Part shown: positions 13,563 to 16,026 of the stretch, piece by piece
How the letters are laid out: each line of letters begins with the position of its first letter
Numbering within the stretch: position 1 is the stretch's first letter
Origin: an uncultured Chloroflexota bacterium
Lineage (GTDB): Bacteria; Chloroflexota; UBA6077; CF-72
Reading direction: 5' to 3'
Length of the DNA stretch: 24,000 nt
Assembly: GCA_964435115.1 (NCBI GenBank)
Contig: CAYSYM010000005.1
Coordinates: 68,224 to 92,223 of the forward strand
Translations under genes and position numbers: made by a program
Notes under the pieces: generated by a model
What the model was told of the DNA's origin: nothing
Seen by the model: only the letters and a program-made list of their open reading frames with translations
Database searches by the model: none

Positions 13563-14555
13563 ATGGCTGTCACTACCCCCACCCCTGCGGCTGTCGTGCA
13601 GCCGACTCCCGACGAGCTGCAGGAGGCACTGCGGCTCATGCTCACCATCCGCCGGTTCGACGAGCAGGCGCTGGCGCTGTACCGGGCGGGCGAGATGCGC
13701 GGGACCACCCACCCGTACATCGGCATGGAAGCGGTGGGCGTGGGCGTGGTGGCGGCCCTCCGTCCAGACGACTACGTCACGAGCACCCATCGCGGTCACG
13801 GCCACACCATCGCCAAGGGCGGCGACATCAGGAAGATGATGGCCGAGCTGCTGGGCAAGGCGACCGGCTACTCGGGCGGGAAAGGCGGCAGCATGCACGT
13901 AGCCGACATGGACAAGCACATGCTGGGCGCCAACGGCATCGTCGGCGGCGGCATGGGGTTGGCCACAGGCGCCGCGCTGACCGCCAGGCTCCAGGGCGCC
14001 GACTCGGTCGCCGTGTGCTTCTTCGGCGACGGCGCGCTCAACCAGGGCATCCTGCACGAGACGAGCAACCTGGCGGCGATCTGGAAGCTGCCGGTCCTGT
14101 TCGTGTGTGAGAACAACCAATACGCCATGTCCACCCGGGCCGAGTGGAGCATAGCCGGCGGCGATCCGGCCGGGCGGGCCGCGGCCTACGGGCTGCCGGG
14201 CGTCACGGTCGACGGCATGGACTTCTTTGCGGTCCACGAGGCTGCCCACCGGCTCGTCGAACGGGCGCGGCGCGGCGAGGGGCCAGCGTACCTGGTCTGT
14301 AACACCTACCGCTACTATGGCCACCACGCCGGCGACCCGCTGAACTACCGGGGGAAGGATGAGGTGGACCGCTGGCGCGAGCAGGACCCGATTGCACGCC
14401 TGCAGCGGGCGCTCATCGAGCGCGGGGTGCTCAGCGCCGGCGAGGCGGCCGAGCTGGAGCAGCGCGTCGCAGCCGAGGTCGAAGCGGCGGTCGCGTTTGC
14501 CAAGGCCAGCCCGGAGCCGACGGTCGACCAACTGATGACCGACATCTACGCGTAG
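13563..14555 (+). CDS. 2-oxoacid (pyruvate/acetoin-type) dehydrogenase E1 component, alpha subunit (TPP-dependent)
   Basis: GGAGG lies 10 nt upstream of the start. Motifs: HRGHGHTIAKG, GGKGGSMH, and the TPP-binding GDGALNQG...VCENNQYAMST. Confidence 0.9.
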   Translation: MAVTTPTPAAVVQPTPDELQEALRLMLTIRRFDEQALALYRAGEMRGTTHPYIGMEAVGVGVVAALRPDDYVTSTHRGHGHTIAKGGDIRKMMAELLGKATGYSGGKGGSMHVADMDKHMLGANGIVGGGMGLATGAALTARLQGADSVAVCFFGDGALNQGILHETSNLAAIWKLPVLFVCENNQYAMSTRAEWSIAGGDPAGRAAAYGLPGVTVDGMDFFAVHEAAHRLVERARRGEGPAYLVCNTYRYYGHHAGDPLNYRGKDEVDRWREQDPIARLQRALIERGVLSAGEAAELEQRVAAEVEAAVAFAKASPEPTVDQLMTDIYA

Positions 14556-14579
14556 GTGTCGGGTGTCGGGTGTCGGGTG
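14556..14579 (+). repeat. tandem heptamer array B (3 perfect GTGTCGG + GTG)
   Basis: Begins at the base immediately after the E1alpha stop TAG (14553-14555). Runs into GAGGAG (14579-14584), the SD of the four-helix-bundle gene. Confidence 0.95.
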
Positions 14580-14593
14580 AGGAGATGCAGACG

Positions 14594-15001
14594 ATGACGG
14601 CGATGGCTGGCTACCGAGAGCTCCGGGTCTGGCAGGCAGCGATGGACCTGGTGGAGGGCGTCTACCGGCACACGCAGACCTTCCCGAAGCAGGAGGTCTA
14701 CGGACTGGCCGCGCAGCTTCAGCGGGCGGCGGTTTCTATCCCGGCCAACGTCGCGGAAGGACACGTCCGCGACCACCTCAAGGAGTACTTGCGGCACATC
14801 TCGGTGGCGCAGGGCTCGCTGGCCGAGCTCGAGACACAGCTCGAGATCGCCCGGCGACTGGGCTACGTCGAGCGAGCCGCCCATCGAGAGCTCCTCGAGC
14901 AGACGGCTTCCATCGGCAAGCAGCTCTATGCGCTGCGCAACTCTCTCGGCAAGAAGCTCAACACTGAATCGACGGCGCACGTGGAGCCCTCATGGCCGTA
15001 G
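14594..15001 (+). CDS. four helix bundle protein (23S rRNA intervening-sequence protein / S23p family, TIGR02436-like)
   Basis: Family-typical sequence [18 protein letters not shown]...[27 protein letters not shown]...[18 protein letters not shown]. In-frame starts are GTG 14570 and ATG 14585/14594/14603. ATG 14594 has the best spacing (9 nt) from GAGGAG. Stop TAG 14999-15001 overlaps the E1beta ATG 14992. Confidence 0.85.
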
Positions 15002-16026
15002 CAACTGCCCCCGACGCCCGACACCCGACACCCGACACCCGACACCTGACCTACGCTGAGGCGCTGAACGAGGCGCTGCGCGAGGAGATGCGCCGCGATC
15101 CCACCGTCTTCGTCCTGGGCGAGGACGTGGCCATCTGGGGCGGCGGCGGCATCTTCGGCGTCACCAAGGGGCTGGTGGACGAGTTCGGCCCCGAGCGGGT
15201 GCGGGACACGCCCATCTCTGAGGAGGCGATCGCCGCGGTCGCCATCGGCGCGGCGGCGACCGGCAGTCGGCCGGTGGCGGAGATCATGTACGTGGACTTC
15301 ATCGGCCTGGCGATGGAGCCGATCGTCAACCAGGCCGCCAAGCTGCGCTACATGTTCGGCGGCAAGGCGAAGGTACCGATGGTGCTCCGCGCCCAGGAGG
15401 GCGCCGGCCGCGGCAACGCCGCCCAGCACAGCCAGAGCCTGGAGGCGTGGTTCTGCCACATCCCCGGCCTCAAGGTGGTCACGCCCAGCACCCCCTACGA
15501 CGCCAAGGGGCTGCTCAAGACCGCCGTCCGCGACGACAACCCGGTCATCTTCCTCGAGCACAAGGCGCTCTACTTCACCAAGGGGTCGGTGCCCACGGAG
15601 GAGTACACGCTCCCGCTCGGGCTGGCCGACGTGAAGCGCGAGGGCCGGCACGTCACCGTCGTCGGCGTCCACACCATGGTGGGCAAGGCGCTCCAGGCGG
15701 CCGAGCGGCTCGCCGCGGAGGGCATCGAGCTGGAGGTGATCGACCCGCGCTCCCTGGTGCCGCTGGACGAGGAGACGATTGTCAGCTCGGTCAGGAAGAC
15801 GGGCCGGCTGATCGTGAGCCACGAGGCGTACACGCGGGGCGGCTACGGCGGCGAGGTCATCGCCCGCGTCGTCGAGTCCGCCTTCGACTACCTGGACGCG
15901 CCGCCCGTGCGCGTGTGCGCCCGGGACGTGCCCGTGCCCTACAGTGCCGTACTGGAGACGGCGGCCCTGCCGCAGGTCGACGACCTCGTCGCCGCGGCCC
16001 GGGCGCTGGTGGGGAAGGAGCTGTAG
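14992..16026 (+). CDS. 2-oxoacid dehydrogenase E1 component, beta subunit
   Basis: Conserved body [28 protein letters not shown]... with transketolase-like pyrimidine-binding and C-terminal domains. The only canonical start upstream of the conserved region is ATG 14992 (GGAG 5 nt upstream). The first ~18 codons ([18 protein letters not shown]) are encoded by the cassette end and heptamer array C. Confidence 0.85.
15011..15052 (-). repeat. tandem heptamer array C (CCGACAC orientation on + strand; 6 units, 42 bp, 4 perfect)
   Basis: Read directly: CCGACGC CCGACAC CCGACAC CCGACAC CCGACAC CTGACCT. It is the inverse orientation of arrays A and B and lies inside the E1beta ORF, translated as [14 protein letters not shown]. 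Confidence 0.95.

Follow-up and report, generated by a model that had tools for sequence, protein, structure and literature searches.

Why should a gene of a protein family whose name goes back to genes in 23S rRNA introns lie, tightly enclosed by inverted heptamer arrays, between the genes for the E1 alpha and E1 beta subunits of a pyruvate dehydrogenase (PDH)? This question is raised by the window analysed here, a stretch of 24,000 nucleotides (G000:C5:68224-92223) from a metagenome-assembled genome (G000; 71% GC, approximately 3.77 Mb) originating from acid-mine-drainage metagenomes. The family concerned is S23p, also known as HB (four-helix-bundle). Intervening sequences (IVSs) with an S23p ORF are found in Coxiella burnetii (helix 45), Leptospira, Brucella, Xanthomonas and Haemophilus, at the helix 25 and helix 45 sites of 23S rRNA.

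The upstream host gene (13563-14555, plus strand; PF00676, 6.4e-91) encodes the E1α subunit and ends with a TAG codon at 14553-14555. Its product matches the PDH E1α models (TIGR03182), which identifies the operon as that of pyruvate dehydrogenase E1. The left arm, (GTGTCGG)3GTG (14556-14579, plus), begins at the very base after this stop codon, exactly as the first-pass annotation of the sequence had stated, and is followed directly on its 3' side by a Shine-Dalgarno-like sequence, AGGAG (14580-14584, plus). Next comes an ORF of 138 aa, the HB gene (14585-15001, plus; ATG at 14585, TAG at 14999-15001). The right arm (15011-15047, plus) consists of four perfect CCGACAC units (15018-15045 for the complete set) with an imperfect copy, CCGACGC (15011-15017), ahead of them, and over 15022-15047 it is perfectly complementary to the left arm. 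An inverted-repeat search paired 14554-14579 with 15022-15047, 442 nt apart, as a 26-nt repeat of 100% complementarity; this is the strongest inverted repeat of the region, with pairing far beyond what chance would produce in a 24-kb window. The inverted copy first placed at 15022-15045 is therefore perfect and even longer than described, while the placing of the cassette exactly between the two genes needs correction: the E1β gene (14992-16026, plus; PRK09212) starts at 14992, overlapping the end of the HB gene, stop codon included, by 10 nt. With its ATG at this position, the right arm lies inside E1β coding sequence and is not intergenic.

The HB gene is the sole ORF between the arms, and no other gene is encoded by the cassette. 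Profile searches confirmed the TIGR02436-like character ascribed to it earlier (TIGR02436 four-helix-bundle protein, 1.1e-34; PF05635 23S_rRNA_IVP, E=1.5e-35 over the whole model). The closest solved structure is the pentameric four-helix-bundle protein Xcc0516 of Xanthomonas (2gsc, E=1.4e-28), and the nearest homologs of the window protein carry the names Pyrinomonadaceae or Blastocatellia. PADLOC returned no defence-system match for either of the two HB proteins of G000.

Folding of the segment 14545-15055 with RNAfold paired the arms as a 27-bp terminal stem (MFE -256.5 kcal/mol; z=-5.19; 0/100 shuffles). The predicted stem-loop (14553-15047, plus) closes a loop of approximately 440 nt that holds both the HB ORF and the E1β start, and the suggestion that the arms could form a duplex looping out the ORF is thus upheld at the level of RNA folding. 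The stem has no U tract and is therefore not an intrinsic terminator; moreover, no promoter- or terminator-like sites were detected in window 13900-15700. As modelled, the 27-bp stem would be a candidate substrate for RNase III in host transcripts.

Comparison with related genomes bears directly on the origin of this arrangement. When the E1α, HB and E1β proteins were used as tblastn queries, more than 30 relatives of the same family and order were found to lack HB and to carry E1α followed directly by E1β, with a spacing of -8 to about 200 nt. On the strength of these sequence comparisons, the HB cassette at the E1α/E1β junction is an insertion, and the empty orthologous junctions for which the first-pass annotation had proposed to look do exist. 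A similar situation was observed at two other loci. The site occupied by an HB cassette in G006 is empty in six congeners (G001, G003, G004, G007, G008 and G010), in which neither HB nor arms are present and the upstream stop is separated from the downstream ATG by 3-6 nt. The left arm of the G014 cassette, as in the window, follows the upstream stop codon (TAG) without a gap, and the congener G032 lacks both this cassette and its arms, with an unrelated spacer of approximately 130 nt in their place. At all three loci the presence/absence distribution is sporadic. In the comparisons of filled and empty sites, the cassette replaced 3-130 nt of native sequence, and no target-site duplications were found. 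The HB gene of G005 lies at the same locus as that of G006, to which it is 51% identical, and the heptamers of the two copies differ; this hints that one hotspot was hit by separate insertions.

G000 contains only two PF05635 genes, the window copy and a second one on contig C3, and neither of them is located in 23S rRNA. The C3 gene (L001 1465-1824, minus strand) is bracketed by inverted arms of about 32 nt, built of AGGAAAT-type heptamer-like units, and lies in another frame inside the ORF of an 855-aa N6-adenine methyltransferase with a DPFCGGG motif (G000:C3 ~125204-127768, i.e. L001 2-2566, minus strand). Compared with methylase homologs in relatives, this ORF has an in-frame, Gly-rich insertion of approximately 165 aa, which corresponds exactly to the arms plus HB (L001 ~1337-1840) and takes the place of about 10 native codons. 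Judging by the frequency of off-frame stops, the methylase frame would stay open across the insert by chance in 4-11% of cases, so its openness is not taken here as evidence of selection for in-frame insertion. The methylase may be part of a restriction-modification system. Two of the points on which the earlier idea had been made to depend were consequently decided in its favour, as relatives lack the gene at the E1α/E1β junction and the other four-helix-bundle gene of the genome is also associated with inverted arrays.

The HB copies within a genome are only 34-42% identical; they are old, and recent multiplication of the cassette is ruled out. The analysis yielded no direct evidence of transposition. 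Contigs from the source population span the window cassette, with no excised form among them; such contigs cannot show rare variants, and the absence of a cassette-skipping joint is therefore no evidence against mobility. There is no reverse transcriptase (RT) in the G000 genome, which makes RT-driven mobility in trans unlikely in this genome. Viral contigs yielded one distant HB-like match (28% identity), situated inside a longer ORF and devoid of arms.

The association between PF05635 genes and inverted arrays, which the first-pass annotation had proposed to test in other genomes, was examined in genes gathered from 41 relatives. In total, 23 HB loci were scored, a bracketing inverted repeat being classed as strong at a score of 30 or more, with the same scoring applied to HB and control ORFs. 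Such a repeat enclosed the ORF in 12/23 loci, within approximately 0-25 nt of its start and stop, as opposed to 0/80 other ORFs of the same loci and 4/2783 ORFs of G000 (Fisher p=9e-10 and 5e-24, respectively, both values being optimistic owing to kinship). Clear arms are missing at about half of the PF05635 loci; in the flanks, period-7 arrays directly adjoin both the start and the stop of most relatives' genes. The arms of each copy are mutually reverse-complementary, and the heptamer differs in nearly every copy (those of relatives include AGGCGAG, GAGTAGC, TTAGTGG, AGTGATG, CAGCTAT, CCATGAC and TCAGAAG).

Plasmid-borne PF05635 genes presented the same picture. All seven of the copies analysed (7/7), from Nostoc edaphicum, Calothrix brevissima, Picosynechococcus, Anabaena sp. 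90, Gemmatirosa kalamazoonensis, Azospirillum lipoferum and Riemerella anatipestifer, are bracketed by inverted arrays of period 7 (in one case period 8), which are 20-40 nt long and approximately 360-550 nt apart. These hosts span Cyanobacteria, Gemmatimonadota, Alphaproteobacteria and Bacteroidota. In the Nostoc plasmid, HB runs antisense to the ribonucleotide-reductase operon that flanks it. Overall, the armed-cassette layout around PF05635 genes recurs in at least five bacterial phyla, a known 23S rRNA IVS being among the cases.

The reading that we favour, with a probability of roughly 0.6, is that an IVS-type selfish cassette of a widespread kind has entered the operon between E1α and E1β. 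This cassette, of which the window has one copy, is a PF05635 ORF within inverted arms composed of short tandem repeats, mostly heptamers. Such a cassette would spread between genomic sites and be carried passively in host transcripts. Its favoured targets would be compact gaps separating co-transcribed genes, directly behind a stop codon, with occasional in-frame entry into coding sequences. The HB protein is probably made weakly at most, and the element, not the host, may be what it serves. We infer that the cassette is mobile and that RNase III plays a role for it.

[quoted passage not shown] The earlier statement that no described element with heptamer-array ends carries this gene must be corrected in the light of these heptamers. 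The distribution of S23p IVSs is sporadic and thought to reflect horizontal transfer (PMC4990558; bioRxiv 2024.02.27.582315). Like a 23S rRNA IVS, the window cassette has a PF05635 ORF in the loop, a stem of 26-27 bp and an interior of approximately 440 nt, and, as in Coxiella, a heptamer array stands just upstream of the gene, 5 nt ahead of its ATG, with the Shine-Dalgarno-like sequence in between. In contrast to the rRNA elements, it resides in a protein-coding PDH E1α-E1β operon, and its C3 counterpart resides in a methylase coding sequence. Moreover, both of its arms are tandem arrays, whereas the Coxiella IVS has one repeat block and a complementary arm; its right arm is host coding sequence, and its stem is a candidate RNase III substrate. 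IVS-type S23p elements are thus already known in rRNA, but their wide occurrence outside rRNA appears to be undescribed, and the literature searched contained no account of S23p cassettes with heptamer arms beyond rRNA genes.

Other classes of elements share some of these features. The HB protein is weakly similar, below cutoffs, to bAvd and to the Avd protein of DGRs (PF22296, NF033474); unlike in a DGR, no RT, template repeat or variable repeat is present near the gene. The cassette resembles MITEs in being a short element with inverted termini that is present or absent at orthologous sites and may have arms-only derivatives. It differs from them in (i) the lack of target-site duplications, (ii) termini that are short-period arrays differing from copy to copy, and (iii) its cargo, an S23p gene, whereas MITEs carry either nothing or a transposase. 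The STRR heptamers of heterocystous cyanobacteria form hairpins between co-transcribed genes, e.g. hupS-hupL, for which roles in transcript stability or translational coupling have been proposed (PMC2670836). The window likewise has tandem heptamers forming a predicted hairpin between co-transcribed genes. However, no protein gene has been described for STRRs, and the window arrays tightly enclose an S23p ORF and are absent from empty sites.

Heptamer arrays also occur without HB genes. In the congener G005 (L012), the same place between E1α and E1β is occupied by inverted GTGTTGG/CCAACAC arms with a loop of approximately 40 nt and no HB gene, one arm being located directly after the E1α stop and the other within the E1β 5' coding region. 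The E1α-E1β spacers of some further relatives contain different small hairpins. G000 has approximately 312 period-7 arrays, of which 12.5% stand directly after stop codons, versus 3% at random positions (an approximately four-fold difference). Arrays of the GTGTCGG/CCGACAC family were found at C7:64308-64476, C15:14180-14260 and C22:51696-51732 as well as on C8, C31 and C35, and some of them are paired in inverted orientation across a short spacer that lacks an HB gene (e.g. on C7). In G014 (contigs C216, C252, C374, C581 and others), there are about 10 further AGGCGAG/CTCGCCT arrays, with up to 16 copies of the heptamer that forms the arms of the HB cassette of this genome, and some of them make tiny hairpins.

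The arms-only hairpins of G005, G014 and G000 (C7) indicate that some arms may go back to repeats which the host already had. Of the competing explanations, the one that survives best builds on this: the arms would be host heptamer hairpins of the STRR type, and HB genes would insert into them or be captured by them. Besides the G005 junction, the additional G014 arrays and the enrichment of G000 arrays after stop codons, the cyanobacterial hairpins between genes such as hupS and hupL (PMC2670836) are what such a scenario would lead one to expect. Nevertheless, the tested empty sites, at the G006-type and G014-type loci, are wholly without arms, and in many independent copies with different heptamers the arms lie 0-25 nt from the HB start and stop. 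In addition, both arms change together between orthologs: the repeat unit of G000 and that of G005 at the E1α/E1β junction differ by C/T (GTGTCGG versus GTGTTGG) in parallel in both arms, and TCAGAAG-type and ATCAGC-type arms have likewise changed together at the locus shared by G005 and G006. The Coxiella rRNA IVS, far removed from an STRR context, has the same layout. We therefore consider the capture of host hairpins unlikely.

A broader version of the selfish-cassette reading can also be envisaged, in which all armed S23p cassettes belong to one class of selfish elements whose arms derive from target sequence and are kept paired by concerted change, and in which arms-only hairpins, including STRR-like ones, are in part footprints left after loss of the ORF. 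We regard this extension as quite doubtful.

Still less probable, in our opinion, is a distinct mechanism by which the arms are built at insertion, a target motif being expanded to an array and copied in inverted form, with concerted evolution thereafter. In the window, the right array (CCGACGC, then CCGACAC) is placed where the E1β gene of G006 has CCCCGACGACGCC. Similarly, there is a likeness between the TCAG-containing arms of G006 and GAGACTGAG, which at the empty site is 5' coding sequence of the gene downstream. Such a mechanism would fit the arms of G000 and G005, which are similar, not identical, at one and the same junction, and the fact that the heptamer differs between nearly all copies. 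Against it, the resemblance is loose and confined to two to three sites, there is little similarity at the C3 methylase site, and no enzyme is available as a mechanistic component.

Finally, the view that HB descends vertically like any ordinary gene, with the arrays forming a coincidental 3' UTR stabilizing hairpin, can be dismissed as highly improbable: heptamer arrays are indeed common in G000 and enriched at gene ends, but here HB stands between two arrays that are perfect inverted complements of each other, the association is seen in five phyla (p~1e-9 to 1e-24 versus controls), and HB is missing from orthologous E1α/E1β junctions. An interpretation of the arrays as an E1α 3' UTR stability hairpin unrelated to HB was rejected, because the pairing is symmetric around the HB ORF and recurs across phyla.

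If the selfish-cassette reading is accepted, the insertion in the window is likely to have affected the host operon. Translation of E1β in relatives is coupled to that of E1α by stop/start overlap (in G006, the E1α TGA and the E1β ATG are fused as ATGA), and the E1β N-terminus, MAVATAP, is conserved. The cassette splits this pair; most likely, E1β translation in the window has been re-coupled to that of HB through the overlap of the HB stop with the E1β start. Since the E1β start codon lies in the loop, efficient cleavage by RNase III would part it from the E1β coding sequence. The model thus argues that efficient processing at the E1α/E1β site would harm the host. It may be that processing is inefficient at this site, or that E1β is translated, by coupling to HB, before cleavage takes place. 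The right array (15011-15047) provides E1β codons ~7-19, i.e. a Pro-rich linker of PTPDTRH repeats ahead of the conserved part of the protein, and represents a period-7 tandem DNA repeat within the 5' end of a coding sequence.

If our interpretation is correct, the S23p/HB family travels mostly as an IVS-type cassette in protein-coding operons, plasmids and CRISPR-cas loci of many phyla. These cassettes would constitute a common and overlooked class of selfish elements which place long, RNase III-type stems into mRNAs and can thereby reshape operon expression, as exemplified by the rearranged coupling of E1α, HB and E1β in the window. This would also bear on how rRNA IVSs spread and what S23p does, a question of long standing.

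Two of the armed plasmid genes are located between cas genes, in agreement with PMC3936711. One of them separates cas10/cmr2 from cmr3 in a plasmid of Picosynechococcus PCC 7003 (L094), and the other lies between cas6 and cas4 in pANA02 of Anabaena sp. 90 (L097). Finally, loose contig ends near window 15010-15049 were observed in the source metagenome, with variant arrays of the CCAACAC type, which suggests that G000 co-occurs with relatives whose E1β genes have heptamer arrays at the 5' end.
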